Both the position numbers and the translations under genes were made by a program. 35,945 nucleotides of DNA from Promethearchaeia archaeon (GTDB lineage Archaea > Asgardarchaeota > Lokiarchaeia > Sigyniarchaeales > SOKP01). The notes below the pieces were generated by a model. That model was not told the origin of the DNA. It made no database searches and worked only from the letters and a program-made list of their open reading frames with translations. The DNA lies in contig JAHQWH010000096.1 in NCBI GenBank assembly GCA_029856105.1, positions 1-35,945 on the forward strand, given 5' to 3'. Below, one piece after another: positions 257-35,945 of the stretch; the stretch's first letter is position 1, and each line of letters begins with the position of its first letter.

Positions 257-345
257 TTGAACAACCATAACCTTAAGGTTATGGATTCGTAGGTTATACT
301 TTCAACACTACCGGATGGTTCAAGCATCCTCTATCCCCTATCCAC
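257..345 (-). ncRNA. Putative TnpB omegaRNA/reRNA scaffold (3' part), guide would be the flank from 256 leftwards
   Basis: Hairpin GGATG-CTTGAAC-CATCC (329-313) whose loop TTGAAC is complementary to terminal GTTCAA (262-257), a pseudoknot. Perfect 20-bp palindrome CCATAACCTTAAGGTTATGG at 265-284. The 5' end is not determinable. Confidence 0.65.
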
Positions 346-1481
346 TTGGATTTAGGGACTCCTTTTTGTAGAATGTTTATTGAAGCGTTCACATCGGCGT
401 TTAGAACAACTCCACAATCTTTACAAATGTATAGTCCACGATACTTGCGATTTGACTTGCTTACGACTCCACACGAAGAGCACGTTTGCGAAGTGTACTC
501 TTCGCCGGTTCTAATTACTTGAATTCCGACCATCTCAGATTTATATTCAATTTGTTGAACAAGTTTTAAAAACGGCGCGGAAACAAAGTTCTGGTTGTTT
601 CTTTTCCCTATCGTGATTTTCTGCTTCCACCCTTCGTTATATCCGATAACGATCGTTCCGATATCGTTAGAGATACAGTGATTGACTACTTTTCGGGAAG
701 TCTTGTGAAAGAAATCCCTCATTTTATTGTTTCGCTTTCGATGGAACTTCAAGATGCGTCCCGTGACATCCGTGTTGTTGCACTTTTTCGCCATGGACTT
801 GTATTTTGACAGTTGCTTATTGTAGAATTGATTGATTGACTTTACAACACCGCCCTTGATAATCAATGGCTTGTTTCCAATGTTATCTGATGCAGTTACG
901 ATATTGTTAAGTCCTAGATCGATTCCTAAAGCGTTATTCTCGTTCAAATGCAAGTTTTTTGGCTCATAATCGTATATTAACTCAATATTGTATCGATCTC
1001 CGAAAGGAACGATGCGAACGCCTTTCACGCTTTTTAACGCGGTTTTTATTTTAGGAAAACCTAAGTTCTCCATCTTTTGCGTGAGTAGTACGTGTCCATC
1101 CTTTAGCCTACATTGTAAGGAAGTGAAATAGACTAAATTATGGCCGGTCTTACGCTTGTAACGAGGAATTTTTGGCATTCCCTTAAATTTAGACCGTTCA
1201 CTTTTCCAAACTTTGATTGCTTTAAAGAAACTCTTGAAATTTCTATCTACTTGTTTTAGGACTTGCTGTGGCGGATGAGATCCGCACGATTCTTGTAGTT
1301 TTCTATACGATTCGTGAGTTTTTAGCGATTTCCACAACTCGTTATATCGAATCCAATGACGGTCCTTGAAAAATCGTTGTCGCACGGTATATGTCGCCAC
1401 ATTAAACAGGTTTTTTGAAAGAAAAGTTATCTCATCTAAGAGAGTTGATCGTTTGAATTGAACTTGTTGAACGAGTTGCAT
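294..1481 (-). CDS. tnpB: RNA-guided endonuclease TnpB (IS605 OrfB)
   Basis: 395 aa. RuvC-I GIDLG (D188), IVIGYNEGWKQ, EEYTSQTCSSC..CKDC zinc ribbon, RuvC-III NADVNAS (D363). Confidence 0.95.
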   Translation of the reverse strand: MQLVQQVQFKRSTLLDEITFLSKNLFNVATYTVRQRFFKDRHWIRYNELWKSLKTHESYRKLQESCGSHPPQQVLKQVDRNFKSFFKAIKVWKSERSKFKGMPKIPRYKRKTGHNLVYFTSLQCRLKDGHVLLTQKMENLGFPKIKTALKSVKGVRIVPFGDRYNIELIYDYEPKNLHLNENNALGIDLGLNNIVTASDNIGNKPLIIKGGVVKSINQFYNKQLSKYKSMAKKCNNTDVTGRILKFHRKRNNKMRDFFHKTSRKVVNHCISNDIGTIVIGYNEGWKQKITIGKRNNQNFVSAPFLKLVQQIEYKSEMVGIQVIRTGEEYTSQTCSSCGVVSKSNRKYRGLYICKDCGVVLNADVNASINILQKGVPKSKWIGDRGCLNHPVVLKV

Positions 1482-5331: not shown

Positions 5332-7062
5332 ATGACTCTTCCCGAAGAAGAACTGAAATTTCTCGAATATTTAGAAAAATTAATAGGGGAGCCCATTCCC
5401 GAAGTACAAGAGCTACAAAGTTATACTTTTGGGTATACTATTAAAGATAACCATGTAGAAGGCCTAAGCTTGTTTTCGTGTAGATTAACAATAATACCCG
5501 AAAAAATTACCATACTCACTTATCTAAAAAAGCTATTAGTTAGGGGTAATAAGTTAAAAGTAATACCAGAGGAACTTTGTTTTATTTCAGCTCTCAACAC
5601 TTTAGATTTAAGCGAAAATAAATTAGTAAAACTACCAAAAGCGATCTATTCTTTAGTTTCGCTAAAAGAATTGCATTCAGAATCGAATCGATTAACAATT
5701 TTACCAGAGACGATAAGTTCGTTATCTTCTCTTACATTATTGGACTTAAGTGATAATTCATTAAATGAAATTCCTGAGAGTATAGGATCGTTAAAAAATC
5801 TAGAATCTTTAGATCTTAGCCAAAATAAAATTGATGAACTTCCGGATTCTTTTGAGCATCTTAAATCTTTGGAACTGTTATATTTAGGAAAAAATAATTT
5901 AACAGCGCTTCCAGAGTCAATAGGTTCTCTAAGTTCTTTAAAAAGGTTAAATTTAAGAAATAACAAATTAAGTAAATTACCTAATGCTATTGGTAATTTA
6001 TCGTCGTTGTCGTCACTATTCTTAAAAGGAAATAATTTAACGTATGTGCCTGAATCAATAGGTAATTTAAAAAATCTTAAATATTTAGGATTAGCGTCAA
6101 ATAAACTACCTTTACTTCCTGAAACAATTGGCTCTCTTAAATCGTTAGAAAGCTTAAATATATCTTCTAATTATCTAACGGAACTTCCTGATTCAATGGG
6201 TCATCTTAAATCTCTTCTAAGATTAGAGATCTCTAGTAACGAATTAACTCAATTACCGGACATGGATAATTTAAGTTCAATTAAAATATTAAAGTTTGAT
6301 AGAAACAATCTTAAATTCCTTCATAATTCTATAAGTAATTTAACTACTCTTGAATCGTTGAAAGTTGATCGAAATGAATTAAAAGAGCTTCCCGATTCAA
6401 TTGGGCAACTAAAATCCTTAAAAGAATTGGATTTATACGATAATAAGCTTACAAAACTTCCAGAATCCATAGGAAATTTATCTTCTCTTGAAGTCTTAGA
6501 TTTAAGTAAAAACCAATTATCAATTTTACCTGAGTCAATAGGATTATTGTCATCTTTAAGGGAGCTCGATATTTCTACTAATAAATTAACCAATTTAGTA
6601 TCAACCATCGGTAAATTACCGCTTTTAAAGAATTTAATAGTAGGATTTAACCGATTAGAAACAATTCCAGATGCTATAGGCGCTTTATCTACTTTAGAAA
6701 CCCTAGATTTAGGGAAAAACACGATAAAAGAAATTCCCGTTTCAATTGGTTCTCTACGATCTCTCAAAAGACTATACTTATACTATAACGACTTAAAAGA
6801 AATACCTGCTTCGATTGGTGATCTTGAAAAATTAAAGTATTTATACTTAGGAAACAATAAATTAACAAAAATTCCAGAAACAATTGGAAATCTAAAATCC
6901 TTGAAATATTTATTTTTAAGAACAAATTACATAACAGAAATACCAGAATCAATAGATTCCCTTACTTCACTTCGGCATTTAAATATTGAACGTAATAACC
7001 TTACTAAATTTCCTCCTTCGTTAGAAAAACTAGAAGATCGTGAAGTGAAAATCCTTAAGTAA
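5332..7062 (+). CDS. Cytoplasmic leucine-rich-repeat protein (~22 repeats of 23 aa)
   Basis: Tandem LxxLPESIGxLxxLxxLxLxxNx repeats over almost the whole length. No signal peptide or TM segment. Confidence 0.95.
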   Translation: MTLPEEELKFLEYLEKLIGEPIPEVQELQSYTFGYTIKDNHVEGLSLFSCRLTIIPEKITILTYLKKLLVRGNKLKVIPEELCFISALNTLDLSENKLVKLPKAIYSLVSLKELHSESNRLTILPETISSLSSLTLLDLSDNSLNEIPESIGSLKNLESLDLSQNKIDELPDSFEHLKSLELLYLGKNNLTALPESIGSLSSLKRLNLRNNKLSKLPNAIGNLSSLSSLFLKGNNLTYVPESIGNLKNLKYLGLASNKLPLLPETIGSLKSLESLNISSNYLTELPDSMGHLKSLLRLEISSNELTQLPDMDNLSSIKILKFDRNNLKFLHNSISNLTTLESLKVDRNELKELPDSIGQLKSLKELDLYDNKLTKLPESIGNLSSLEVLDLSKNQLSILPESIGLLSSLRELDISTNKLTNLVSTIGKLPLLKNLIVGFNRLETIPDAIGALSTLETLDLGKNTIKEIPVSIGSLRSLKRLYLYYNDLKEIPASIGDLEKLKYLYLGNNKLTKIPETIGNLKSLKYLFLRTNYITEIPESIDSLTSLRHLNIERNNLTKFPPSLEKLEDREVKILK

Positions 7063-9515: not shown

Positions 9516-11531
9516 ATGGATCCTTCAAAAGCCATGAAAATTAAATTATCAGACGAATTACCTCCAAATCCCGTCTTTAAAGAGGATATCCGAAGGGCGC
9601 CTAATCGTGGTTATGACTTGAATCGTGACGAGACATTAATTGCGTTAAAAAATGCTTTGCGATATATACCTAAAAAATTACACGAAATTCTAGCACCAGA
9701 ATTTTTAAATGAGTTAACCGCGAGTGGAAGAATTTACGGTCATCGGTATCGTCCAGAAGGAGAGATTAAGTCTAAACCTGTTGACGAGTACAAGGGTATT
9801 TTAGAAGCTCGTGCGATACAATTAATGATCGACAATAATTTAGATTATAATGTAGCTCTTTATCCATATGAACTCGTTACGTATGGCGAAAGTGGACAAG
9901 TCTGCCAAAATTGGATGCAGTACCGATTAATCAAAAAATATCTCGAAGTAATAAATGAAGAACAAACCCTTGTGGTTATGTCAGGCCATCCTCTTGGCTT
10001 ATTTCCCAGCAAAAGAGAAGCTCCGAGAGTGATTATGACGAATGGTTTGATGGTTGGTATGTTTGATACGCCAGAAGAGTTCAAACGAGTTTCAGCTTTA
10101 GGTGTGGCAAATTACGGTCAAATGACTGCGGGAGGATGGATGTATATAGGACCTCAAGGGATTGTTCATGGAACTTACATTACGCTGCTAAATGCAGGTC
10201 GGCTTTATTTAAAAATACCTAAAAGTGAAGGACTTAAAGGAGTTCTCTATTTAACTTCTGGATTGGGAGGGATGAGTGGAGCTCAAGCGAAAGCAACCGA
10301 AATTGCAGGTGGTATAGGTGTTATCGCTGAAGTTGACGATTCTCGAATTAAAACTCGCTATGAGCAAGGATGGGTTAGCAAAGTTTCGAGCAATCTTGAA
10401 GAAATTTTTAATTGGGTTGAGGAATATAGAAAAAAGAAAGAACCAATTTCAATTGCATTTCATGGTAATATTGTTGATGTCTGGAAATATGTAATGGATA
10501 ACAACATTAAAGTGGAGCTTGCATCAGACCAAACTTCTTGTCACGCGCCTTATGAGGGCGGATATACTCCCGTTGGATTAAGTTTCGAGGAAGGTAGGGC
10601 GTTATTAAAATCTGATAGAGAGAAATTTGAAAGGTTAGTTGACGAATCTTTAAGGGAACAATATAACCTTATCAAAATGATGGTCAGTAAAGGTACTATA
10701 TTCTGGGACTATGGAAATTCGTTTCTAAAAGCAATTTACGACGCTGGAGCTCATGATATTGCAATTAATGGCGATCCAAAAAATGGTTTCATATTTCCCT
10801 CTTATGTAGAACATATTATGGGTCCAATATGTTTTGATTATGGATATGGACCTTTCCGATGGGTGTGCTTAAGCTTAAAACATTCAGATTTAATAAAAAC
10901 CGATCAAGTTGCAATTTCTTCTATCGATCCTAATCGGAGCTCACAAGATAGAGATAACTGGCATTGGATAAAGAATGCCGAAAAGAACAACTTAGTAGTT
11001 GGTTCTCAAGCTCGTATATTATATGCCGATATGGAAACTCGAGTAAAGATTGCTTTAAAATTCAACGAAATGGTTAAAAATAGAGATATTGGAGCGATTA
11101 TGTTAGGACGGGACCATCACGATGTTTCTGGGACCGATAGTCCCTTTAGAGAGACATCAAATATAAAAGATGGCAGTAATGTTATGTCTGACATGGCTCA
11201 TCACAGTTGGGCCGGTAATATAGCAAGAGGAATGACTATGTGTGTACTATCGAATGGAGGGGGTGTTGGTACGGGGAAAGCAATCAACGGCGGTTTTGGT
11301 CTAGTGTTAGATGGTTCAGAACGAGTAAATAACATAATTCGCTCTGCAATTGAGTGGGATGTAAACTGTGGTGTCGCTAGGAGAGCTTGGGCTAGAAATG
11401 AAAACGCGTTAGCAACAGCTTATGCTTGGAATCTTAAAAATCAAGATAGAGGGCACATCACTTTACCTTTTTTGGTAAAAGATGATTTATTAAATGATGT
11501 TATTAATGTGTATTTAAAAAAGTATAAATAA
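9516..11531 (+). CDS. hutU: Urocanate hydratase, long (~670 aa) type
   Basis: YPYELVTYG, YGQMTAGGWMYIGPQGIVHGT, GLGGMSGAQ, SDQTSCH, GRDHHDVSGTDSPFRET. Confidence 0.97.
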   Translation: MDPSKAMKIKLSDELPPNPVFKEDIRRAPNRGYDLNRDETLIALKNALRYIPKKLHEILAPEFLNELTASGRIYGHRYRPEGEIKSKPVDEYKGILEARAIQLMIDNNLDYNVALYPYELVTYGESGQVCQNWMQYRLIKKYLEVINEEQTLVVMSGHPLGLFPSKREAPRVIMTNGLMVGMFDTPEEFKRVSALGVANYGQMTAGGWMYIGPQGIVHGTYITLLNAGRLYLKIPKSEGLKGVLYLTSGLGGMSGAQAKATEIAGGIGVIAEVDDSRIKTRYEQGWVSKVSSNLEEIFNWVEEYRKKKEPISIAFHGNIVDVWKYVMDNNIKVELASDQTSCHAPYEGGYTPVGLSFEEGRALLKSDREKFERLVDESLREQYNLIKMMVSKGTIFWDYGNSFLKAIYDAGAHDIAINGDPKNGFIFPSYVEHIMGPICFDYGYGPFRWVCLSLKHSDLIKTDQVAISSIDPNRSSQDRDNWHWIKNAEKNNLVVGSQARILYADMETRVKIALKFNEMVKNRDIGAIMLGRDHHDVSGTDSPFRETSNIKDGSNVMSDMAHHSWAGNIARGMTMCVLSNGGGVGTGKAINGGFGLVLDGSERVNNIIRSAIEWDVNCGVARRAWARNENALATAYAWNLKNQDRGHITLPFLVKDDLLNDVINVYLKKYK

Positions 11532-11559
11532 AGTAAGAGTCCTATTGGGTTTTGTTAAC

Positions 11560-13077
11560 ATGGAAAATGATTTTAAATACGGTCAAGATCACTTGACTGT
11601 TAATTTGGCTCTGAAGATTGTTAGAGGTCAGATTAATGGTGTCCTAACGGAAGAAACCAAAATAAAAATAGAAAAAAACTATAATGTTGTTCAAGATATT
11701 GCAAATGGTGAAGTCTTAGTATACAGCATTAATACGGGATTTGGGTCTTTGTGTACAACTAGAATATCCAAAGAAGAAGTTGGTAAATTACAATCAAATT
11801 TGCTTAAGAGCCATAGCGTAGGCGTTGGTTCACCTATTGGCAAGGAAATTGCAAAATTGATGTTGATTCTTAAAGTCCACGCGTTAAGCATGGGATATTC
11901 TGGGATTTCTTTAAATTTGATTGAAAGAATTCTCTGGCACATCAACAACGATTTTATTCCGTTGGTTCCAGAACAAGGCTCAGTAGGCGCATCCGGAGAC
12001 CTTGCTCCGTTAGCTCATTTATTTTTACCTTTAATTGGTTTAGGTTTTCTGTCAAAAGATGGTAAAAATTATAAACCAGCAATAGAAGTTTTAAACCAAA
12101 ATGGATTAAAACCTCTTGAACTTCATGCAAAAGAAGGTTTGGCGTTAATTAATGGAACACAATTCATTACAGCTCATGGGGTTATTGTCGCTGAAAAGTT
12201 TTTTAGTTGTTTAGAGCAAGCCGATCTAATCGGAGCAATGATGCTTGAAGGGTATTTAGCATCGCCTCAACCTTTCAATGAGAGATTAATTGCTTTACGT
12301 CCTCATGATGGTGCTAAAACTGTTGCTAAAAGAATCAGGAAGTTTTTGAAGAATTCTCAATTTGTAGAATCGCATGCAGATTGTGATCGAGTTCAAGATC
12401 CTTATTCTATTCGATGTATCCCCCAAGTCCATGGAGCCTCAAGAGATGCTTTTTCACATTTAAGCGAGAAGTTGGAATGTGAATTAAATTCAGTTACGGA
12501 CAATCCTATAGTTTTTGATGAAGATACTGCTATCAGCGGTGGAAACTTTCATGGACAACCTCTTGCCTTACCTCTGGATTATATTAGCTTAGCCGCTTCT
12601 GAGCTAGGAAATATCTCAGACCGGCGAACATATCTTCTTTTAGAAGGAAAGTGGGGCCTTCCCCCATATTTAATTCAAGAATCTGGTTTAAATTCCGGTT
12701 TTATGATTACCCAATATTGTTCAGCAGCATTAGCTAGCGAAAACAAAACAATGTGCTTCCCAGCAAGCGCGGATAGTATCCCAACATCAATGGGACAAGA
12801 AGATCATGTCAGTATGGGATCGATTAGCGCTAGAAAAGCGCTTCGAATTATTTTTAATCTTGAAAAAATACTAGCAATAGAACTCTTGTGTGCCGCTCAA
12901 GCGTTTGATTTTAGAAGACCGTTAAAATCTAGCGCAACTTTAGAAGCATGCCATACCTATATTCGTAAAAAAATCCCCCATATTAACGAAGATGTAGTTC
13001 TTTCGGAATACATCGAAATTGCTTTGGAAATTATAAAAAGTGAAGAATTAATTAAAATTGCAAACGAAGTAAAATGA
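11560..13077 (+). CDS. hutH: Histidine ammonia-lyase
   Basis: YSINTGFG, GSVGASGDLAPL (MIO-forming ASG), KEGLALING, VQDPYSIRC, GGNFHGQP, QEDHVSMG. ATG at 11560 preferred over TTG at 11545. Confidence 0.97.
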   Translation: MENDFKYGQDHLTVNLALKIVRGQINGVLTEETKIKIEKNYNVVQDIANGEVLVYSINTGFGSLCTTRISKEEVGKLQSNLLKSHSVGVGSPIGKEIAKLMLILKVHALSMGYSGISLNLIERILWHINNDFIPLVPEQGSVGASGDLAPLAHLFLPLIGLGFLSKDGKNYKPAIEVLNQNGLKPLELHAKEGLALINGTQFITAHGVIVAEKFFSCLEQADLIGAMMLEGYLASPQPFNERLIALRPHDGAKTVAKRIRKFLKNSQFVESHADCDRVQDPYSIRCIPQVHGASRDAFSHLSEKLECELNSVTDNPIVFDEDTAISGGNFHGQPLALPLDYISLAASELGNISDRRTYLLLEGKWGLPPYLIQESGLNSGFMITQYCSAALASENKTMCFPASADSIPTSMGQEDHVSMGSISARKALRIIFNLEKILAIELLCAAQAFDFRRPLKSSATLEACHTYIRKKIPHINEDVVLSEYIEIALEIIKSEELIKIANEVK

Positions 13078-14405
13078 CAGTAAGATCTACTCCATCGCCA
13101 CAAAGAATAAAAAGAAAAGATGTTGATAACAAGGTTCGAACACTCAAATTAGATTTGATTATAATTCACATCAACGAATTAGTAACCATGGATTCTAAAT
13201 ATGGGGTTCCAAGAAGAGGCAAGAACATGGCAGAGTTGGCACCCATTCACGATGGCGCAATAGCAATATCTGGTAATTCTATAGTTTTCGTAGGAACGAC
13301 AAATGAATTATTTTCTAGCTTTTTTCCTAAAGGAGAAACAGTAATAATTGATGCTACAAATCGTTTAGTAACTCCTGGATTTGTTGATCCGCATACTCAT
13401 ATTATCTTCGATGGTTTTAGAGAAAATGAACTTGAAATGAAACTTGCTGGTAAGACCTACCTTGAAATCTTAGAGGCTGGGGGCGGGATATTAAAAACTG
13501 TTGAAGCGACGAGAAAGGCTTCGTTAGAAATCTTAATTCAAAATGGGAAAAAGATTCTTAATAGGATGATGGAATATGGAACGACTACAATGGAAACGAA
13601 ATCTGGATATGGACTCGATGTCGAGAACGAAATTAAGTCGTTATTAGCAGCAAAAGAGTTAAACCTCGTGCATCCCATGGATGTAATATCAACGTTTTTA
13701 GGCGCTCATGCAGTACCGCCAGAATACGAGGGTGAAACAGACGGTTATGTAGAATTAATTATTTCAGAAATGATTCCAAAAGTCGCACAAGAAAAATTAG
13801 CAGAATTTTGCGATGTATTTTGTGAAGAGGGGATTTTTTCAGTTGTTCAAACAAAAAAAATATTAAATGCGGCTATGAAATACGGTCTAAAACCGCAGAT
13901 TCATATCGATGAAATTATCGACACGAATGGGGCATTATTGGCAGCAGAGTTAAACGCTGTGCAGACGGGACATATGTTAAAATCTAACGACGAAGGTTTA
14001 AGAGCAATGAGAAAAGCACAAACAATTGCTACACTATTACCCGGGACGCCTTTTTGTTTAATGATGAGGGACTATGCTCCTGCAAGAAAGATGATCGAAT
14101 ACGGTATTCCAATAGCCCTTGCTACCGACCTTAATCCAAATTGTTGGACAGAATCGATGCAAATCATAATTGCTTTAGCATGCTATCACATGAAACTTTC
14201 ACCAGCTGAAGCTCTAACAGCAGCTACGATTAACGCAGCTTGTGCACTTCAAAAACAAGATCAAATTGGAAGTATAGAAGTAGGTAAGAAGGCAGACTTA
14301 ATAATTTTTGATGTACCGAACCATAATTTTCTTCCTTACCAATTTGGTGTAAATCTAGTTTCAAAAGTTATAAAAAATGGTAAAGTTGAAGTAGATTTTG
14401 ATTAA
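13074..14405 (+). CDS. hutI: Imidazolonepropionase
   Basis: PGFVDPHTH, GGGILKTV, KSGYGL, TFLGAH, DVFCE, ATDLNP. ATGA overlap with the hutH stop. Confidence 0.96.
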   Translation: MTVRSTPSPQRIKRKDVDNKVRTLKLDLIIIHINELVTMDSKYGVPRRGKNMAELAPIHDGAIAISGNSIVFVGTTNELFSSFFPKGETVIIDATNRLVTPGFVDPHTHIIFDGFRENELEMKLAGKTYLEILEAGGGILKTVEATRKASLEILIQNGKKILNRMMEYGTTTMETKSGYGLDVENEIKSLLAAKELNLVHPMDVISTFLGAHAVPPEYEGETDGYVELIISEMIPKVAQEKLAEFCDVFCEEGIFSVVQTKKILNAAMKYGLKPQIHIDEIIDTNGALLAAELNAVQTGHMLKSNDEGLRAMRKAQTIATLLPGTPFCLMMRDYAPARKMIEYGIPIALATDLNPNCWTESMQIIIALACYHMKLSPAEALTAATINAACALQKQDQIGSIEVGKKADLIIFDVPNHNFLPYQFGVNLVSKVIKNGKVEVDFD

Positions 14406-14419
14406 TTTGTTCTTAAAAT

Positions 14420-15337
14420 TTAGAAATCAAAATAATTCTCTAACAGATGTTTTGGCTCAAGTTTTTTAGGATTTTCAAGTTGTAAATAATAACCTAAAGA
14501 ATTAAGCACAGCACCTAAGGGTAACACGCCGATTAATTCTGTACCAACAATGGGTACACCATATCGAGCGGCTTCAATTCGTACGAGTTCCATCTGACGA
14601 TATAGAGGGGTTTTTTTATAATTAATATTACTAATCCCTACTTGGACGCAATCTCTCGTTTTTAAATCTGTCCCCATTGCTTTAACGTTTACAAGTCCTC
14701 CCGAGCGTAAATGAATTGCTTTTGCTACTTTTTTCGCAACTTTAACGTCTTTAGTCCCAAGGTTGATATTAAAACTAATTAAGGGATATCTTGCTCCCGT
14801 TATTATTGCACCTGCCGTTGGATGAAATTCTGAAGGACCATAATCCGGTTTCCTTTCAGGGTTAGTCTTAATGGTTTCTTTTAATCCTTCATATTCTCCG
14901 ACTCTTATGTTATCAATATTTTTCCTTTCAAGGTTCCTTGCTGAATCTTCGTATAAATATACTGGAACGCCTTCTTTTGCCATTTCTTCAGCAAATTGTT
15001 TTGACAATTCTATGCATTCTTCAATTGTTATATTTTGAGCGGGTATAAACGGAACTACGTCAATTGCTCCTATTCGAGGATGCTGACCTTTGTGTTTATT
15101 CATGTCAATTAGTTCTATCGCTTTTTTAGCTGCGGCAATATTTGCTTTCAACACGGCTTCTGGAGTACCAACAAAAGTAATTACAGCTCGGTTGTAGTCA
15201 GAGTCGTATTGAATGTCTACGATGTTAGTTTCGGGAGTGTTTTTAATTTCTGCTACAATTCGTTCGACTTTATCTCCATCTGTACCTTCGCTATAATTAG
15301 GTACCGACTCAACTATTTTTTTATTTTTAAATGCCAT
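14420..15337 (-). CDS. ftcD: Glutamate formiminotransferase (stand-alone FT domain of FTCD)
   Basis: ESVPNYSEG, DSDYNRAV, HKGQHPRIGAIDVVPFIP, PVYLYE, IRVGEYEG, GAR. Convergent on hutI. Confidence 0.93.
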   Translation of the reverse strand: MAFKNKKIVESVPNYSEGTDGDKVERIVAEIKNTPETNIVDIQYDSDYNRAVITFVGTPEAVLKANIAAAKKAIELIDMNKHKGQHPRIGAIDVVPFIPAQNITIEECIELSKQFAEEMAKEGVPVYLYEDSARNLERKNIDNIRVGEYEGLKETIKTNPERKPDYGPSEFHPTAGAIITGARYPLISFNINLGTKDVKVAKKVAKAIHLRSGGLVNVKAMGTDLKTRDCVQVGISNINYKKTPLYRQMELVRIEAARYGVPIVGTELIGVLPLGAVLNSLGYYLQLENPKKLEPKHLLENYFDF

Positions 15338-26805: not shown

Positions 26806-28053
26806 TTAATTAATTCCAAAAAAATCTCGATGAAATTTACGTTCAGCCAGTTCTTTTCTGATTTTTTCTCTTTCTTCAGGGAGAATTCTATTTTTTAAGG
26901 CTTCGATGCCAATTTTTTTTCCTATGACTACTTTCGGATTGATTGACCAGTTTACATCTAATAATAAACATAAATAATAGACTGTCGATTGAATAAAAGC
27001 GATAAGATTGCCTATGTTATATTCGTCACAGCGTTCAATTGAGATTTTAGCTGACGGAACCCCTTGTTCTATTAGGGCTTGAAAAGTAGCGTCTGCTTGA
27101 TAATTTACTATGGTTTGGGCCGTTTGGTCGTTCACGTAATCTATTGAGGAATCTAAGTTAAAATCTGAGAATTCGTTTTTTATAGTCCACAATATCGGGA
27201 CTACAGCACCCTTAGTTCCACCTAATAGATATTCTAAAACTGAATGCTGACACAGTGGAGCAGATTGATAAGCACCCATTAGACCTTTCTCGTTCTTCCC
27301 AGTGCTTTCTGATGTTTCTTGCACGAATAATCCTACACTTCCTTCAAGATTCAGAGAATATGGCATAGAAAATACAGTCTTGTAACCTTTTTTGTACAAA
27401 TTATAAAGAAAAGCTGAAAAAAGGAATGCTGGGTTCTCGTCAAAACTCATAAATTCTTTATAAGCATCGTTTAACCCTTTTAAAAAATCTTCGATGTTAA
27501 CTCCTAACAGAAAAGCTGGGACAATTCCAACGTTAGAGATCGATCCCGCAAAACGACCTGAGATATCAGGAACCTCCAGAATGGGGCAACCTATTTTTTC
27601 TAATATTTGACGCATCGTACCCTTTGAAGAGAGCCCTAGAAATTTGTAATTGTTTTTTAAGAAAGTTCCTATAGTAGAGTTTACATCTAAAGTTTCGCCC
27701 CCTCTAGAGATAGGAATTACAACCGAATTTTCAGGATCTGTTGCGTCAAGGCATTGTTTTAATTCTACAGCCCTAGAACTTGTAATAGAATATAGATTCT
27801 TTTTAGATAAATGCCTTAAAGCAAGTAAAGTTTGAATTGAGCCTCCCGTCCCTAAAACTATAATGTTCTTTATTTTCTCACCCAGAAATTCTTTAGTCGT
27901 TTGGCGAATTGCTCCCATGTCGATATACGATTCAGTATCAATAAAAAATGGAGGATCCCAATGAGGTTTATTGGATTTAGAGATTGAAATTAGTTTTTCC
28001 ATTAAATTGGCGTTAATTTTTGGATAATATTCGAAATTTAAACCTAAACTCAT
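26806..28053 (-). CDS. pgi: Glucose-6-phosphate isomerase family (double SIS), divergent
   Basis: LGTGGS, SRGGETLD, SGRF, QETSESTGK, QHS, C-terminal GKK. Start at ATG 28053 is supported by SD-like GGTGA (28065-28061). Confidence 0.75.
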   Translation of the reverse strand: MSLGLNFEYYPKINANLMEKLISISKSNKPHWDPPFFIDTESYIDMGAIRQTTKEFLGEKIKNIIVLGTGGSIQTLLALRHLSKKNLYSITSSRAVELKQCLDATDPENSVVIPISRGGETLDVNSTIGTFLKNNYKFLGLSSKGTMRQILEKIGCPILEVPDISGRFAGSISNVGIVPAFLLGVNIEDFLKGLNDAYKEFMSFDENPAFLFSAFLYNLYKKGYKTVFSMPYSLNLEGSVGLFVQETSESTGKNEKGLMGAYQSAPLCQHSVLEYLLGGTKGAVVPILWTIKNEFSDFNLDSSIDYVNDQTAQTIVNYQADATFQALIEQGVPSAKISIERCDEYNIGNLIAFIQSTVYYLCLLLDVNWSINPKVVIGKKIGIEALKNRILPEEREKIRKELAERKFHRDFFGIN

Positions 28054-28190
28054 TTTTAATTCACCTATTAAAGTAGTATTTTTTTTTCTAAATATGACTT
28101 GTGACATATCCTATTTAAATAAACATTATTAGAAAAGGAATACTTTATATCATTAATGGTTTAAAATCATACTACGGGGTTACAGTTTCT

Positions 28191-28689: not shown

Positions 28690-29958
28690 ATGGCTAAAGC
28701 AAGCGAAATGAATAATGGAGGCCAATCCGGGAATGGAGAGCCTTATTTCTGTAAAGAATGTAAAAGAAACCATACTAAAGGCAAAATTTACAAGGAGCAT
28801 TTAAAATTTGCTCGGTTCGAAACAGATAAAAAAGAAATCGAAGAAGAATCTGAAAGTAGTGAAAAAGGACTTGAATCTGAAGTAGAAGAAATTTTTGAAG
28901 GTTTAGATGAAGAGGAAAAAGAAGATGAAGATGACATTATTGAATTAAATGAGATGGAAGAAGAAGAATTAGATTCAGATCCAGATAGTAGTAAAGTTAT
29001 AATCAATGACGCAAATATGTGTGTAGAAGCTGTTAAAAGGCTTCCTGGGGTAGGTGAGGCTACGCTTAAAAAACTAATTAAGGCTGGATTTAGTAGCCTT
29101 GAATCCATCGCTTATACACCCCCAAAGATAATTCAAAATGAATCTGGACTCGGAGATAAAACAATCGCTAAATTAATTAAAGCTAGTATGTCCCAGTTAA
29201 AAATCGGCTTTAAGTCTGCTGAAGATGTATGGGAGTATAGAAAAAATATTTCGAGAATTACGACAGGTAGTCAAGAACTCGACGATCTTTTTGGAGGTGG
29301 AATTGAAACTGGTTGCGTTGTTGAGTTTTTTGGAGAGTTCAGGACCGGTAAAACCCAAATAGCCCATCAATTATGCGTTAATGTTCAATTACCCATGGAA
29401 GATGGGGGTCTCGATGGAAATGCATTGTATATAGATACTGAAGGAACATTTAGACCTGAAAGAATAGTACAGATGTCTGAAGGACTTGATTTAGATCACA
29501 AAAAGATTTTGAAAAATATAATATTTGGTCGTGCTTACAATTCTGATCATCAAATTCTCCTAATAAAAGAAGCTGCTAATCTTATCAAAGAGAAAAACAT
29601 TAAACTAATAATAGTTGATTCTTTAATTGGACATTTTCGAAGCGAATACGTAGGTAGAGGTACGTTAGCAACCAGACAACAAACTATTAATACCCACTTA
29701 CACGATTTATTACGTCTAACAGATATTTTCCCAGAGCTATGTATCATTGTAACAAATCAAGTTCAATCAAAACCTGATGTTTTTTATGGAAACCCAACAG
29801 TCGCGGCAGGAGGAAATATAGTTGCTCATGGATCAACAATAAGAGTATATTTAAGAAAAGGTAAAGGCGAGCAGAGAGTAGCGAAAATGATTGATGCGCC
29901 TCATCTACCCGAAGGAGAAGCTGTATTTTCAATAACAGAAAATGGAATTGGCGATTAA
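28690..29958 (+). CDS. radA: DNA recombinase RadA with ~110-aa N-terminal extension
   Basis: HhH LPGVG, FKSA (FxxA), GGGIETG, Walker [21 protein letters not shown], Walker B LIIVDS, TNQV, GGNIVAH. Confidence 0.96.
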
Positions 29959-30032: not shown

Positions 30033-33000
30033 TTATTTTAATTTTTCGTATTCATTTGCTTTTTTGGTTAATCTCTTGACTTCTTTTGTCATATCACTAG
30101 CACCTAATTTGAAAATTTCTGACGCCATTTTAGACGCATATTTATACCTCGCGCTGGCTTCAGCGTAGTTTTTGTTTTTAACAGCATCTTTTGCTTCTTT
30201 TTCTAAATCCTTCTTTTTCCCGCTTAAATCTTCAATTTTAGTTTTTCGAATAATTTCCTCTATTTGAACGAATTCATTTGACAATTCCCAATTTGAAGCC
30301 AACATAGCGGCGCTTTGATACAATTCAATAGTTTTTTGATAATTTTTCTTTCCTTTCGCAATTTTGGCTCGTTTGCTTAACTCATTAACCCCTTTTTTTG
30401 CAGATTTCTTGTTATCAACTATAATAGTACCTATAGTAGTTTTAATTGGGGCAGAGACGATTTCATGTTGTTTAGTCAAGCTAGAAAGATAAGCTTCTCT
30501 TTCTATTGGACCCAATTGGCCTAAATCGTTCACCAATTTCTGTCTTTCATTGTTAGTTAGCGTGGTTAATGATGCGACTTTTTGACTAATAAGATTCAAT
30601 TCCTGCTGAGAAATAGGTTGAGCTTCAATTGTAGAGATTTCTATTGGCATTAGAATTTTCTTATCTCTTAATTCCTTAATTCCCATAAAAATTTCTGCGG
30701 TATCCTTACTCGTTTTTTCGGATGCTTCCTTTAATAACGTTGCTACAAAGAAAAATTCTCGTTCTGCTTCTTCACAACAGCTATGTGCTATCTTTAACAC
30801 ATCTTTTGAGAAAGAACCTTTTAACTCTTTAACGCTTGAGAAATCGTACGATATCTGATGTGGAAGAATAATGGATGTATTCAAAATCTCATCAACTATA
30901 ATACCGGCATTTCTAAAGTGGTTTAATTGACCTCTCCAAGTTGGCAATACTTCTTTGTAGGTTTTTTCAAAAGAATCTATAAATTCTTTTAAATGACGAC
31001 GAAGAATCATAGATGCTTTTTTACCTAAAACCAAAGCAACTCTAATATATTGACCATCAGCTAATAATAACATTTTATCGCCGTAAGAAATTTCGTTTAA
31101 TGTTTCTTGAGTAGCCATTTCTTTACCAAAAGAAGATACTGCCGTTAAAAACCCTCCTATCAATTCAGGATCTATCTGTTCTGAGCCATAGGATTTAAAG
31201 AAAATACACGTTCCAGTTCCTTTGTATAATACTAATATGTGCTCTAGATTAATAGCGTCGTCGAAAATAGTCTTAACATCGGTCAAAATGCGTTGTTTTT
31301 CCCTCTTTTTGGGAACGACTACACCACGATAAACTGCTAAAGAACCACCAGCAACAGCAACAATAGCTCCGATTAGTATGATATAAGGGAGCAGTTCTTC
31401 AAAGGCTAAACCGAGCGGAATAACATCGATATCGGAAATTGGCAATATGTAAGCTAAGTGGTCGTATTCAACTTGTAATTCAAGAGATATATTCATCGTC
31501 CTAGCATCGCTTCTTATTGTTATATCGAACGATACTCCACCAGTGCTATTAGTAATTTTAGTCTGAATTTCAGTTGACGCAGTTCCATCAAAGTAAGGCG
31601 TCATGATAACGGTATTACCTTGAAGAATTAGCCAATCAGAACCATTATAAAACTCTGCTAGAAGTACGATTGAAAATAAATCTCCTGCGTTAACCTCAGT
31701 TGGTTTCAGTACAACCGTCAGACGAGTTTGATATTTTTCAATTACGGTGAGATTGAAAATGAAAGATGTATTTTCGTAATTTGTCTTAGAAACTGTAATA
31801 TTAATTAAATAGCGTCCAGCAACTAAATTAATATTCGAAGTAGATATTGTTCCTATGTGTCTATTGGTTATAAAATTTATATCGTAAAGAAGTGTCCCGT
31901 TCGAACTGGTATCAAGATTTATATAGGTTATATAATATGAATTGACGGCTCCTAATACTAAATTGTTGCTGAATTCTAGATCAGTTATATTGAATTCGAT
32001 ATCAAGATCGCTTTCTTCGAAGATTGTAAAATTGTATCCTAATCCAGATGGTGTTAATTCTCCTCCCGGATCCTCCAATGAAATCAAATTTATTTGAGTG
32101 TAATTTCCTCTATAATAGAAAGTTACGTTAAATAGACTGTAGTCATAATTAGGAAATTTTGATGCGTTGATTTCTAACGTGTACAATCCTGAATTTCGAG
32201 TTCCCATAGTAATATCTAAAATATAGGTTCCGTTGCTGAATGGATCAAAAAGCCAAAATTCCCCGTCACTAAATGGAGTTCCAGTAGCGTAATTTTTAAC
32301 CACAATATTTTCTGTTATGACATTGAGAACCGGTAGGTTATTTGTAGTATCATTGAAGTAAAATCTAACTGATTGATTCAAACCAGAATTTCTTGCAATT
32401 TCTGGTATCGAAAATACATCAATAACTTCCGTTTGAATTGTTAATACATTTACTGTTAATCTTATAATTTGAGTCTCATTGCCGGTGGCATAAACATTAA
32501 ATTCATAATCGTACGCTGAACCTGTGACTAAAACATTTGTTGTATCTAAATGCATGGTATAATTTCCATTTCCCAAATTCTCTAAGAATGCTGTAAATCC
32601 GACAGGGCTACTTAATCTTGACCATGAAACTTCTTCAATTGGTTTGTCATTAGTATCGGTATAGTTGAATGTATAAGATACATTTAAACCTTTCATAACA
32701 GATCCTAAATCTATTATGTTAAAAGGAGTAATTTGGGTTGTAATTTGTCGGTGAAATGTGTAAGTTGTTGATCTGTTTTCATAGAATTGTTTGGAAGCAT
32801 CAATAAAAATATCAACAAAACCGTATTTTATGAAATCAGTATCATTTACGTTGATGTTTATATTATATTTGCCATCTCCAATGTAATTAACATTATCTTG
32901 TCTGTAAGTACTCCCTTCATCAAGACTATATTCAATTGTTGCTCCATCGATTCCAACATCCTTAATCGTATCATTATACTCAACTGTAACATCGAAGTTT

Positions 33001-35720
33001 TGACCTTCAATATATACAGCCCCACTTGTAGGTGCTAATACAAACAATGTTTCATTTCCAACAATTAATGTATTTAAGGTAGTGGATTGATTATGATAGT
33101 TCACTAAACTTACATTAACTCGAATAGAAAACAGTTTATAATTACTAAAAATCGAATCGCTGCAATCAATGGTAATGTTATAATAACCATCTGCATTATC
33201 AGTCCAAACTGGATTATAGATTGTACCATCAACATCAACAACTACTTCTGCTCCAGTAATTCCTAAGCTTTTAACAGTATTTCTATAATAAACCGAAATG
33301 CTGAATGTTTCGGCAGCAGTATAGTATGATTGATCTGGGATCCTCGTAGCAGATAAAGAAGTTTCACCTAGTATATTTATGTTAATCGAATTGCTCTGAT
33401 TGTAATAATTTTGCTTGCTTGCATTAACAATTATAGTATTTAATCCATATCCAATAAAATCTCCATCATTACAATCAATTGTTATATTGTATTTACCACT
33501 TCCAAGAGGAACAATATTGATGGACTTGTAGGAAGCACTTGGATCAAGTTGATATTCAATAATAGCGCCATCAATTCCTTGATTTTTCACCGTGTCATTG
33601 TAAAGAACTGTTACGTTAAAAGTATCACCGGAATTAAAAACAGTTAAGTCAGGGGGGTTCAAGATTGTTAATTCAGTTTCGCCATAAATTGTGATTTGAA
33701 CTGTTTTGGTTTGATTGTTATAATACTGCTTACTAGCACTAATTTCAATGTTCTTTGGTCCATAACCGTTGAAATCTGTATCGTTACAATCAATAGTAAT
33801 ATTGTAATAACCATTACCAAGATCAAATACATTATCTGTTCTAGTAGAACCACCTTCAATGTTATAAGTAAACAAATCAGCGACAATACCCGTATCTAAT
33901 CCGGTATCGTTAAAATACACTGTTATATTAAATGTATTGCTCGCGTCAAAATTGGTTAATGGTAAACTAGGAATCAAATCAGTATCTCCGAAAATTGTTA
34001 TATTGGATTCTAAAAATCCCGCTGCTGTGTCGTTGTTCCAAGACATTTGAATTTTAAAAATACCATATTGAGTAACATTAACCGATACATCCCAATTTGA
34101 AACGAGAAATTCGGTATCAGCACTTGAAATGCTCAAAATCTTTGAGTGATTTAAATATTGCATTAATGGGCTGTACACACTTAAGTTTAAATCTCCATTT
34201 TTAATAATTTCGTTAAATGTAGCATTTAGTTCTACGATATTTGAATGATTGGCGATGCTCATAGCAACTCCGCTTACATAGGTATCAATCGAATATAATA
34301 GATTAGTAGAATTTGCTTTTAGATGCCAAAATGTTCCATTTCCCGCATTAAAAACATTGACCTCCCTATATCCATTCCCTAATGAACGGTTAGTACTATC
34401 TGATGTTTTTGGAACACCACCATTAAATACTCTGATAGTATCTTCATACCAAGTATCCGGTATCGTAAAATTAATTTGATAATTATCGAAGCGCGAGTCA
34501 AAATAATTTAATCCGCCTGTTCGTGTAACATTCCATTCTACTATTTGATCGCTTTCAGCAATAATAAATTCAGCACTAGCACTTAAATCTGTTTTAGTAT
34601 AATTTACTTGAATTTTTGTAATATTACAAGACACATTCCACCAACCTGCCGTTAATTCAAAATCTAACTGATTTGTTAAAATTGAAAATTTTTTTGAACT
34701 ATTCCAGTTTCCAGAACCTTTTACATTCCCCCATGCCTCAGTTCCATTAATTCTGAGGTCAATTTCGGTTGGTAATGGTACATTATCTATAGGACTAAGA
34801 TCAACTATTAATTCTAAATCAACAGATGGGCAAAAAGAGCTGCTTACTATTAAATTCCAAGCTACTCCTGTAGGGTTTTCATAACTCCACGTTTCATCAT
34901 TACTATCTGTATTACCTCCACCAGCATTAGAATCATCAACATAACTCCAAGCTCCATTACCACTTGATGTATCGTATAAACCAATAAACCAGGTATTATT
35001 TTCAGTTTTGGAGTTATCTAAAAAATAGTGTTGATTTGAGATATTGCGCCAAGCACGTCCTCCACCTGTAAGCGCACCTGGTATATCAAAAGTATCTAAA
35101 TCAGTTTCTGAATCTAAATCTGGTTCACTTCTGGTGCCAATCCAAGTAGAATTATATATGACAACTTTTACTGTAGCTGTATTGGTTGCATGGTTATTCC
35201 TACAAAAAAAAGTAGCATTTTCTAAATAACCATCTCCTTTAACTATAAAAGAGGTTGCAGCTGGATTAGAATTTGTAAATGCAAAATCATCATGAGGGTT
35301 ACTATAATCCTCTACTATTAAAGAAGCGTTTGGGGCATAAAGGTCCTCAACAGAAATCTCACTAAGGGTAGAACTAAATGTCTGTTCACTCGGACTAATA
35401 ATACTGAATGTATTATTATCATAATCAGAAGCATTGCTGATTTCAAATAGAGGTAATCCCGTTTGTATTATTGATTGATGTAATGAAATATTAACATTGT
35501 CTCCAAATCCGTTAAAAGAGGTTAGAGCATCTGATGTCTCTAGCGTTTGATTTTGAAAATCTAGCGGATTGTCGTAATTAATTTCTTCATCATTTTTGTT
35601 TGAATTGTCGATGATAAGCAAATTTAATAAGGGTGAGCTATAATTAGCTAAGATCATCCCAAAAAACAAGAAAAGAAGACTATATATTTTTTTATTTTTA
35701 TTAGATTTAAACATATTCAT
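30033..35720 (-). CDS. Giant single-pass membrane protein: signal peptide, Ig-like repeat ectodomain, TM, cytoplasmic longin-like and helical-repeat domains
   Basis: Basic plus hydrophobic N-terminus. ~8 beta-rich ~100-aa repeats (nt 33989-31420). TM at 31394-31329 followed by KKREKQR. Longin-like segment at 31247-30879. ATG at 35720 or 35714 preferred over TTG 35729. Confidence 0.85.
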   Translation of the reverse strand: MNMFKSNKNKKIYSLLFLFFGMILANYSSPLLNLLIIDNSNKNDEEINYDNPLDFQNQTLETSDALTSFNGFGDNVNISLHQSIIQTGLPLFEISNASDYDNNTFSIISPSEQTFSSTLSEISVEDLYAPNASLIVEDYSNPHDDFAFTNSNPAATSFIVKGDGYLENATFFCRNNHATNTATVKVVIYNSTWIGTRSEPDLDSETDLDTFDIPGALTGGGRAWRNISNQHYFLDNSKTENNTWFIGLYDTSSGNGAWSYVDDSNAGGGNTDSNDETWSYENPTGVAWNLIVSSSFCPSVDLELIVDLSPIDNVPLPTEIDLRINGTEAWGNVKGSGNWNSSKKFSILTNQLDFELTAGWWNVSCNITKIQVNYTKTDLSASAEFIIAESDQIVEWNVTRTGGLNYFDSRFDNYQINFTIPDTWYEDTIRVFNGGVPKTSDSTNRSLGNGYREVNVFNAGNGTFWHLKANSTNLLYSIDTYVSGVAMSIANHSNIVELNATFNEIIKNGDLNLSVYSPLMQYLNHSKILSISSADTEFLVSNWDVSVNVTQYGIFKIQMSWNNDTAAGFLESNITIFGDTDLIPSLPLTNFDASNTFNITVYFNDTGLDTGIVADLFTYNIEGGSTRTDNVFDLGNGYYNITIDCNDTDFNGYGPKNIEISASKQYYNNQTKTVQITIYGETELTILNPPDLTVFNSGDTFNVTVLYNDTVKNQGIDGAIIEYQLDPSASYKSINIVPLGSGKYNITIDCNDGDFIGYGLNTIIVNASKQNYYNQSNSININILGETSLSATRIPDQSYYTAAETFSISVYYRNTVKSLGITGAEVVVDVDGTIYNPVWTDNADGYYNITIDCSDSIFSNYKLFSIRVNVSLVNYHNQSTTLNTLIVGNETLFVLAPTSGAVYIEGQNFDVTVEYNDTIKDVGIDGATIEYSLDEGSTYRQDNVNYIGDGKYNININVNDTDFIKYGFVDIFIDASKQFYENRSTTYTFHRQITTQITPFNIIDLGSVMKGLNVSYTFNYTDTNDKPIEEVSWSRLSSPVGFTAFLENLGNGNYTMHLDTTNVLVTGSAYDYEFNVYATGNETQIIRLTVNVLTIQTEVIDVFSIPEIARNSGLNQSVRFYFNDTTNNLPVLNVITENIVVKNYATGTPFSDGEFWLFDPFSNGTYILDITMGTRNSGLYTLEINASKFPNYDYSLFNVTFYYRGNYTQINLISLEDPGGELTPSGLGYNFTIFEESDLDIEFNITDLEFSNNLVLGAVNSYYITYINLDTSSNGTLLYDINFITNRHIGTISTSNINLVAGRYLINITVSKTNYENTSFIFNLTVIEKYQTRLTVVLKPTEVNAGDLFSIVLLAEFYNGSDWLILQGNTVIMTPYFDGTASTEIQTKITNSTGGVSFDITIRSDARTMNISLELQVEYDHLAYILPISDIDVIPLGLAFEELLPYIILIGAIVAVAGGSLAVYRGVVVPKKREKQRILTDVKTIFDDAINLEHILVLYKGTGTCIFFKSYGSEQIDPELIGGFLTAVSSFGKEMATQETLNEISYGDKMLLLADGQYIRVALVLGKKASMILRRHLKEFIDSFEKTYKEVLPTWRGQLNHFRNAGIIVDEILNTSIILPHQISYDFSSVKELKGSFSKDVLKIAHSCCEEAEREFFFVATLLKEASEKTSKDTAEIFMGIKELRDKKILMPIEISTIEAQPISQQELNLISQKVASLTTLTNNERQKLVNDLGQLGPIEREAYLSSLTKQHEIVSAPIKTTIGTIIVDNKKSAKKGVNELSKRAKIAKGKKNYQKTIELYQSAAMLASNWELSNEFVQIEEIIRKTKIEDLSGKKKDLEKEAKDAVKNKNYAEASARYKYASKMASEIFKLGASDMTKEVKRLTKKANEYEKLK

Positions 35721-35945
35721 GTTTATCAAAAATTTATTTATTATTTTGTTATAAAGTATATCATTATATTAAATCATTAATCGCGTAATTTGAATTTAAA
35801 ATTACTTTTTTTATTCTAAGTTAATATGAATATTTGAATTAATTCAATAAATGTGAATAAAAACTATTTCATAATATGTTCAAAAAATTGGTAAAAAAAG
35901 ATACAGAATTTATCTTATTTTTCGGGTTTTTTCAGAATAATCCTC

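Follow-up and report, generated by a model that had tools for sequence, protein, structure and literature searches.

The window analyzed here, a complete contig of 35,945 nucleotides (C96) from the 3.66-Mb, 92% complete assembly of a Promethearchaeia archaeon of the order Sigyniarchaeales, encodes on its minus strand a predicted giant surface glycoprotein whose cytoplasmic tail appears to combine a longin domain, a winged helix and two tandem helical bundles resembling MIT domains. This is a new architectural variant made from known folds, within a large, unannotated family that extends across the Asgard archaea. Taken as a whole, the protein is best explained, in our view and with the balance standing about even, as a receptor-like surface molecule whose tail would act as a membrane-anchored docking platform, so that a variable recognition or adhesion surface would be coupled to membrane-remodelling or sorting machinery beneath it.

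The gene occupies a single open reading frame (ORF) of 1898 codons (30033–35729, minus strand) that opens with TTG; the ATG at 35720 is the likely start, since public gene calls give a protein of 1895 aa (P0153). Residue numbers below follow the 1898-codon frame, in which the following features were assigned:

30036–35720, minus strand: coding sequence of a 1,895-aa type I surface glycoprotein (public gene call; stop codon at 30033–30035; the TTG-started ORF reaches 35729)
35640–35720, minus strand: N-terminal signal peptide or anchor, aa 4–30 (basic n-region, then a hydrophobic stretch by hydropathy; cleavage is a prediction only)
33951–35639, minus strand: distal ectodomain, aa 31–593, rich in sequons (no PDB or Pfam match; Trp, Cys and Asn columns conserved among orthologues)
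31713–33950, minus strand: seven tandem beta-rich repeats of about 100 aa, probably Ig-like or Big-like (first four 35–47% identical; three added by iteration with hidden Markov models, HMMs)
32085–32147, minus strand: recombination breakpoint relative to the closest relative, L014, at about aa 1195–1215 (nucleotide identity 57% distally, 91% proximally)
31395–31712, minus strand: membrane-proximal stalk of the ectodomain, aa 1340–1445 (conserved along with the tail in L014)
31329–31394, minus strand: single transmembrane helix, aa 1446–1467, followed by a basic stop-transfer stretch (hydropathy, charge)
31248–31328, minus strand: juxtamembrane helix, aa 1468–1494 (helix at tail residues 7–27 of the model)
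30867–31247, minus strand: longin-fold domain, aa 1495–1621 (AlphaFold2 model, fold searches)
30624–30851, minus strand: winged-helix domain, aa 1627–1702, not basic (mid-domain model, fold searches, charge)
30417–30623, minus strand: three-helix linker and beta-hairpin, aa 1703–1771, without an assignable family (model)
30222–30416, minus strand: first MIT/TPR-like three-helix bundle, aa 1772–1836, with the motif A-x3-KNY-x2-T-x3-Y-x2-A at aa 1791–1807 (model, fold search)
30036–30221, minus strand: second MIT-like three-helix bundle, aa 1837–1898, with the same motif at aa 1849–1865 (model, fold search)

The topology follows from hydropathy, charge and sequons. Strongly hydrophobic 19-residue segments occur only at aa 1436–1467 (Kyte–Doolittle score up to 2.2) and at the N-terminal aa 17–40, and the net charge changes from −4 in the 15 residues before the transmembrane helix to +5 in the 15 after it. 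N-x-S/T sequons number 64, all but one of them N-terminal to the helix (63, against about 29 expected from composition), with the remaining one in the tail. A single-pass type I protein, with a signal peptide or anchor, an ectodomain of about 1,400 aa outside, one transmembrane helix and a cytoplasmic tail of 431 aa with a basic start, is very probable on this evidence, and its surface part is probably heavily N-glycosylated. The initial annotation, made from the letters alone, had described the same sequon-rich ectodomain, membrane helix at aa 1446–1467, positive-inside stop and cytoplasmic tail of about 430 aa, and each of these is borne out.

The tail (aa 1468–1898) was modelled with AlphaFold2 from an alignment of 50 sequences, giving a mean predicted local distance difference test score (pLDDT) of 86.3 and a predicted template modelling score (pTM) of 0.75. 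Within the model, aa 1495–1621 run in the order beta-beta-alpha-beta-beta-beta-alpha(-alpha), with the helices packed on a five-stranded sheet (DSSP, tail numbering: E28–35, E40–46, H54–66, E77–82, E85–91, E95–101, H107–123, H141–154). Longins took the top ranks in both Foldseek and VIA, at root-mean-square deviations (rmsd) of 2.6–3.3 Å and Foldseek template modelling (TM) scores of 0.57–0.71. Sec22b superposed with Z 10.9 and 2.6 Å over 118 residues, synbindin with Z 10.8 (3.0 Å), AP2 sigma with Z 10.0 (3.1 Å), VAMP7 with Z 9.9 (3.0 Å), and the Lokiarchaeal longin 8yqg_B with Z 10.3 and 3.5 Å over 131 residues. Roadblock domains (LAMTOR, MglB) superposed far worse in Foldseek, at 7–10 Å; Pfam gave no Robl_LC7 match on the tail, and the juxtamembrane helix precedes the sheet. 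The model and the fold searches support a longin fold for aa 1495–1621, confirming the longin pattern that had been read into aa 1495–1617.

Eukaryotic longins (the SNARE longins of Sec22b and VAMP7, AP sigma, zeta-COP, TRAPPC4/synbindin and the SRX domain of SR-alpha) share this fold and element order, with Z 9.5–10.9 and rmsd 2.6–3.1 Å over 116–123 residues; unlike them, the tail has no significant match to any Pfam longin family. The arrangement also differs from that of the longin SNAREs (R-SNAREs), in which the longin is followed by a SNARE heptad motif and then a C-terminal transmembrane helix, whereas here the order is ectodomain, transmembrane helix, longin; the Pfam synaptobrevin/SNARE profile had no match on this protein. 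Searches of PDB sequences with the single tail sequence, a mid-domain profile and an N-terminal ectodomain profile gave no match. An NPRL2/NPRL3-like identity for the whole tail was rejected: GATOR1/SEA chains align over 338–381 columns but with TM scores of 0.16–0.19 and rmsd above 22 Å, and none was among the top 50 of the exhaustive aligner.

Folded alone, the middle part of the tail (pLDDT 83.5) placed a winged helix at aa 1627–1702 with the topology H1-S1-H2-H3-S2(-S3). Fold searches support this assignment: Cdc6 superposed with Z 7.7 and 2.6 Å over 71 residues, ORC1 with Z 7.3, SAMD1 with Z 6.9 and MCM with Z 6.8, and the top Foldseek match of the mid-domain was the winged helix of RPC39 (probability 0.75). 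The modelled domain, at nt 30624–30851, agrees with the winged-helix-like segment noted earlier at nt ~30815–30640. With a net charge of −3, and a recognition-helix position averaging −0.8 over 49 relatives, the domain is not basic, which favours protein binding and makes DNA binding unlikely. For the linker that follows, a Vps28-C-like identity of aa 1703–1753 (an idea from PMC10936438) found no profile match, the segment being too small for a meaningful fold search.

In the AlphaFold2 model the tail ends in two three-helix bundles in tandem (aa 1772–1898). The second superposes on the MIT domains of VPS4A, Sulfolobus Vps4, MITD1, katanin and SKD1 at 1.4–1.9 Å and 14–22% identity (VPS4A 2jq9_A, Z 10.2, 1.7 Å, 64 residues, 22% identity; Sulfolobus Vps4 2w2u_B, Z 10.1, 1.4 Å, 69 residues, 19% identity; 4a5x_B, Z 10.1, 1.5 Å; 2cpt, Z 9.5, 1.9 Å), and among proteins with two MIT domains in tandem the pair resembles calpain-7 (Z 9.7) and LIP5 (Z 8.9), values to be read with the caveat that helical bundles with Z below about 13 in this aligner may reflect only a common arrangement. 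The motif A-x3-KNY-x2-[AT]-x3-Y-x2-A is present twice (aa 1791–1807 and 1849–1865), and 20,000 random shufflings of the tail sequence never produced even a single copy of its core; the initial annotation had found both copies, transcribing the start slightly wrongly as A-x3-[KG]-x-KNY where the sequence reads A-x3-KNY. Profile–profile alignment with this order's own Vps4 MIT by hhalign gave a probability of 56% (E 1e-4, 32 columns), and a six-frame family scan of the contig found no MIT at E ≤ 1. The bundles thus appear MIT-type at the level of fold, with membership of the MIT family borderline by sequence; the earlier "MIT/TPR-like" description was right in the first respect (Z about 10 with Vps4 MIT) and borderline in the second. 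Compared with Vps4, MITD1 and katanin p60, and with tandem-MIT calpain-7 and LIP5, the tail has the same three-helix bundle (1.4–1.9 Å over 64–69 residues) and likewise two in tandem; it differs in scoring below the Pfam cut-off, in a helix-1/2 motif closer to consensus TPR, and in having no AAA ATPase or protease attached.

Relatives of this tail are numerous. A search of 1.84 billion cluster representatives returned 1,219 at E ≤ 1e-3. The longin–winged-helix part is matched by 145 listed relatives, 126 of which have at least 40 residues upstream; in 120 of these 126 a hydrophobic 19-mer stands directly N-terminal to the module, and the N-terminal parts are between 53 and 2,400 aa long. At the other end, 47 of the 145 stop just after the winged helix and 52 have the MIT-like extension of about 200 aa. 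In a sample of 201 genomes, all from the window's own phylum (Asgard), the module was matched in 185 genomes and 55 of 59 genera, usually several times per genome (13 places in this one), and the complete MIT-bearing tail was confined to the window's own family and order. Transmembrane helix, longin and winged helix together are, as far as sequence matches tell, a phylum-wide Asgard module. In public records the homologues have no Pfam domain and are named "hypothetical protein"; the first Lokiarchaeum genome contributes one of 2,731 aa. Some relatives have longer tails that include further modules: P0004 (1865 aa), which matches the tail in three stretches, and P0048–P0050 (2566–3025 aa) continue for 200–320 residues beyond the MIT-like pair.

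Outside the membrane the protein has a different character. Seven tandem repeats (aa 594–693, 698–797, 803–901, 906–1006, 1012–1107, 1114–1217 and 1240–1339) emerged from a seeded search together with HMM iteration; comparing the ectodomain with itself by plain BLAST had listed none. Their number varies from 1 to 15 among relatives. Single repeats match Big_7 (0.0012), Big_3_5 (0.0005), Big_13 and Ig_3 weakly, and the repeat profile has a weak match to invasin (E 0.077). Of the "Ig-repeat" ectodomain described earlier, the tandem units of about 100 aa at aa 594–1339 stand, and their Ig-likeness hangs on these weak matches. The distal 560 or so residues (aa 31–593) had no match in PDB or Pfam. 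Giant repeat adhesins of archaea and bacteria, with Big or fibronectin-like domains, likewise have a signal peptide, tandem beta-rich repeats of about 100 aa in variable number and a C-terminal membrane anchor, but their cytoplasmic tail is short or absent, whereas here a four-module tail of 431 aa is the best-conserved part.

This contrast extends to the evolution of the gene. The tail query retrieved 80 loci, all from metagenome-assembled genomes of Promethearchaeota (Asgard), mostly of the Lokiarchaeia type. Among orthologues the tail is 50–92% identical and the ectodomain 32–54%, and identity of the tail correlates with that of RadA at rho 0.67, against rho 0.19 for the ectodomain (n = 43 from related genomes, hence descriptive only). 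In the closest relative, L014, whose RadA is 97% identical, aa 1–1200 share 46% amino acid and 57% nucleotide identity, with third-position identity at identical residues of 50–61%, whereas aa 1201–1898 (stalk, transmembrane helix and tail) share about 90% and 91%, with third-position identity of 85–89%; the break near aa 1200 is about 20 codons wide. Saturated synonymous sites on one side of so sharp a break point to replacement by recombination rather than to rapid evolution of the protein alone. In other relatives the breakpoints lie elsewhere, and in L020 the tail is less similar (79%) yet the ectodomain more similar (73%). No silent copy of the distal ectodomain was found with this query in the 92%-complete assembly of the same genome, so the mosaic is read as exchange between lineages; intragenomic cassette switching was rejected on the same ground. 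We conclude from these patterns that the distal 1,200 or so residues are exchanged between lineages by recombination, with stalk, transmembrane helix and tail vertically inherited and conserved. The sharpness of the mosaic indicates an outer part under pressure to vary, which viruses, partners or kin recognition might exert, and it is new information on the population biology of Asgard archaea.

Turning to what the conserved tail may bind, the best indirect support for a link to small GTPases comes from a 293-aa protein encoded elsewhere in this genome (L012:763–1644, minus strand, contig C10), in which a longin is joined to an Arf/Ras-like G domain; this longin shares the signature of the tail longin (38% identity over 48 aa, E 1e-9). 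Fusions of longins with GTPases are known in Asgard archaea (PMC4917890, PMC10933270). A second protein of the same genome, soluble and 457 aa long (L005:1306–2676, plus strand, contig C11), aligns to the whole tail (E 7e-20), scores 22.6–27.4 bits on the Pfam MIT model, which is sub-threshold, and is a candidate to form heterodimers with the membrane-bound tails. Its N-terminus is Cys-rich, possibly a zinc ribbon, and is followed by longin, winged helix, linker and two MIT-like units. On contig C10 the 293-aa fusion has three further Ras-family genes within 7 kb.

Lokiarchaeal GTPases are without CAAX motifs, and prenyltransferases have been lost (PMC4917890); since these GTPases have no lipid-anchor signals, a membrane-anchored longin would fill a real gap. 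In the proposed mechanism the partner of the longin–winged-helix core would be a second longin or a Roadblock protein, a small GTPase, or one of each, and the tail could thereby bring anchor-less Asgard GTPases to the membrane. Longin pairs act as GTPase platforms in eukaryotes. That a GTPase or a longin/Roadblock partner docks on the tail is a tentative proposal, to which we give somewhat less than even weight. The order-specific MIT-like pair could in addition bind helical motifs of the MIT-interacting motif (MIM) type, such as the conserved C-terminus of ESCRT-III (endosomal sorting complex required for transport III). ESCRT-III and Vps4 are encoded in this genome, and the ESCRT-III adjoining Vps4 (own copy L094:1438–2064, minus strand; orthologues L104–L133) ends, throughout the order, in an invariant L-E-x-E-[LI]-x-x-L-K with MIM1-type spacing. 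Binding of ESCRT-III by the MIT-like pair is nevertheless doubtful in our estimate. A second ESCRT-III (L095:1393–2043) has a similar C-terminal motif.

The genomic neighbourhood gives this proposal little of the backing that had been looked for. Downstream lie a convergent radA, a 119-aa gene matching Robl_LC7 (Pfam, E 1.2e-9), an ORF of 433 aa (26806–28107, minus strand) and aspartate kinase; this ORF of 433 aa has no Pfam match, and PDB sequences identify it as a divergent glucose-6-phosphate isomerase (E 6e-17). Because window positions 35819–35945 (127 bases) are 100% identical to positions 1–127 of contig C208 (locus L134), the two contigs join and the upstream neighbours can be read on C208: an ATP-grasp_5 gene on the minus strand about 190 nt away, its stop near 35915, and, two genes upstream, a divergent gene fusing a roadblock-like domain to a Ras-family GTPase. 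RadA is a neighbour in 71 of the 80 orthologous loci, glucose-6-phosphate isomerase in 68, aspartate kinase in 48 and the upstream ATP-grasp gene in 39, against 16 for the stand-alone Roadblock gene and 15 for the fusion of Roadblock and Ras-like GTPase. That Roadblock genes stand on both sides of the gene in this genome is suggestive, yet the association is not conserved, and an operon-type link to the Roadblock gene as a conserved feature was discarded at 16 of 80 loci. No ESCRT gene adjoins the locus. Genome-wide, 64 Ras-family and 17 Roadblock matches were counted in the 3.66 Mb.

A number of results weigh against a docking platform, beginning with this context. Any kind of Roadblock neighbour is found in 27 of the 80 loci, and the conserved surroundings are, judging by gene content, a housekeeping stretch of chromosome and not GTPases or ESCRT; the genomic association with GTPase, Roadblock or ESCRT partners anticipated in the initial annotation is thus not conserved. 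By our estimate, moreover, a Ras-family gene would lie within a few kb of any gene by chance in roughly one case in five. At the level of sequence, Pfam and NCBIfam returned no significant family for the whole protein or for the tail, and none of the Pfam longin families (Longin, Sybindin, Clat_adaptor_s, SRX and others) appeared at E ≤ 1 on either. Three-helix bundles are common, which adds to the caveat on Z given above; the Pfam MIT model (PF04212) scores the protein at 10.9 bits (E 0.5) against a gathering threshold of 30 bits, and a profile of the C-terminal unit prefers consensus TPR among PDB sequences (E 8e-19) to Sulfolobus Vps4 MIT (E 0.046–0.088) or VPS4B (E 0.099). Longins also act without GTPases (PMC4917890, PMC10933270). 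The earlier picture of a receptor wired to GTPases and possibly ESCRT stays a hypothesis, with indirect support from the longin–GTPase fusion and the soluble paralogue, and with housekeeping genes as its conserved neighbours.

Among the alternatives, a passive coat anchor survives best, though we consider it rather unlikely. The protein would then be a structural part of an irregular coat distinct from an S-layer, and its tail would only dimerise or cluster and tie the coat to the cortex through longin–longin, winged-helix and helical contacts, recruiting neither GTPase nor ESCRT. Such a role would fit the dense, unordered surface proteins of cultured Lokiarchaeia, which have no S-layer (PMC9834061; bioRxiv 10.1101/2025.07.22.663070), as well as a single-copy gene in a conserved housekeeping neighbourhood with no dedicated partner gene conserved alongside it over the 80 loci; the Lokiarchaeal longin 8yqg, going by its title, was also solved as a dimer. 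A tail of 431 aa and four modules, kept at the identities given above next to a far more divergent ectodomain, is much for a mere anchor, however, and the same tail architecture exists as a soluble protein in which no anchoring is needed, just as a related longin is fused to a GTPase.

Alternatively, the protein could be cargo instead of a receptor, the MIT-like pair and a longin akin to adaptor sigma or zeta-COP being built-in signals for delivery or removal through ESCRT-dependent vesicles or protrusions. The best longin matches do include adaptor small subunits and zeta-COP, bundles of MIT type are present, the genome has ESCRT-III and Vps4 with a conserved ESCRT-III C-terminal motif, and Lokiarchaeia shed chains of envelope vesicles (bioRxiv 10.1101/2025.07.22.663070). 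We nonetheless regard self-sorting of this kind as quite improbable: most family members across the phylum are without the MIT-like extension, the 47 of 145 that end after the winged helix among them, so ESCRT binding cannot be the core function of the family, and no ESCRT gene adjoins the locus. A membrane-tethered regulator, in which a PAS/GAF-like longin would sense a small ligand or a conformational signal from outside and the winged helix would bind DNA as in ToxR/CadC-type one-component regulators, is very improbable, for although the best winged-helix matches bind DNA (Cdc6/ORC, SAMD1, KAT6A, MarR and Fur families) and longins belong to the broad PAS/GAF-like superfamily (PMC4917890), the winged helix here has the acidic charge described above, is embedded between two domains in a compact model (pTM 0.75) and has no conserved target gene nearby.

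The components of the proposed docking platform are familiar, and the differences lie in how they are assembled. There is ample documentation of the longin, Roadblock, small-GTPase and ESCRT proteins found in Asgard archaea (bioRxiv 10.1101/2020.10.19.343400; PMC10933270; PMC10936438). The tail longin shares its signature with the longin–Arf/Ras fusion of its own genome and resembles the described longin–GTPase fusions and Roadblock–Longin proteins (Lokiarchaeota, PDB 8yqg, PMC10933270; Klinger et al. 2016, as cited in PMC4917890); the published Asgard longins are soluble or fused to GTPases, and we found none described with a transmembrane helix and ectodomain. In the accessible text of Makarova et al. 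2024 (PMC10936438), multidomain Asgard proteins mix longin, TPR, Ig-like and HTH/PCI domains around Vps28-C. These ESCRT-related proteins share domain vocabulary and phylum with ours, and their authors likewise infer GTPase activation from a longin. As presented in that text, their defining features are a Vps28-C or steadiness-box domain together with an adaptin appendage; Pfam detects neither feature here, and a transmembrane-anchored tail on a surface protein does not figure in it. More generally, the main texts within our search, which left supplementary tables and subscription journals aside, contained no description of a surface protein with a transmembrane-anchored longin–winged-helix(–MIT) tail, and the locus tag of the GC14_75 orthologue led to nothing specific in the literature. 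The statement in the initial annotation that no functional description of this architecture was known agrees with this, the homologues all being annotated as hypothetical.

Asgard genomes encode dozens of small GTPases together with longin and Roadblock proteins. To our knowledge, there is no known way of placing these GTPases on membranes, given the absence of CAAX motifs and prenyltransferases, and we know of no role assigned by anyone to the abundant irregular surface proteins. Cell contact mediated by protrusions is central to current models of eukaryogenesis. In this family a surface part that varies is physically linked to a longin platform anchored in the membrane, which makes the family a concrete, testable candidate for the connection still missing between the cell exterior and the trafficking-like machinery of the interior. 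More speculatively, and in our judgement unlikely as a complete account, members throughout the phylum may be type I "receptors" whose recombining, hypervariable ectodomains recognise partners, viruses or surfaces and whose longin–winged-helix tails recruit anchor-less small GTPases to the membrane at the contact site, with the MIT pair adding ESCRT-III in this order; if true, receptor-coupled membrane trafficking and outside-in signalling would have had a forerunner in prokaryotes. Abundant unidentified surface proteins have been seen on Asgard cells by cryo-electron tomography (PMC9834061; 10.1101/2025.07.22.663070), and should the tail serve as an anchor and nothing more, the family still marks out a major, so far unannotated, class of envelope proteins in Asgard archaea.

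Elsewhere in the window, profile scans identified genes including RadA, Alba, Roadblock, LRR and TnpB. The RadA gene (28690–29958, plus strand, 422 aa) has its HhH domain from residue 114 and thus about 110 extra N-terminal residues, an extension missing from many orthologues, where tblastn matches cover about 312–320 residues. Positions 9516–15337 hold a complete histidine-utilisation set of urocanase, histidine ammonia-lyase, amidohydrolase and, on the opposite strand, formiminotransferase. A TnpB/Cas12f-like ORF of the IS605 family (294–1481, minus strand; OrfB_IS605 and TNB domains) lies at the left contig end. Leucine-rich repeats are a fold class reported to be expanded in Asgard archaea and eukaryotes, and the 576-aa protein encoded at 5332–7062 (plus strand) consists almost wholly of them (LRR_8, E 3e-92).

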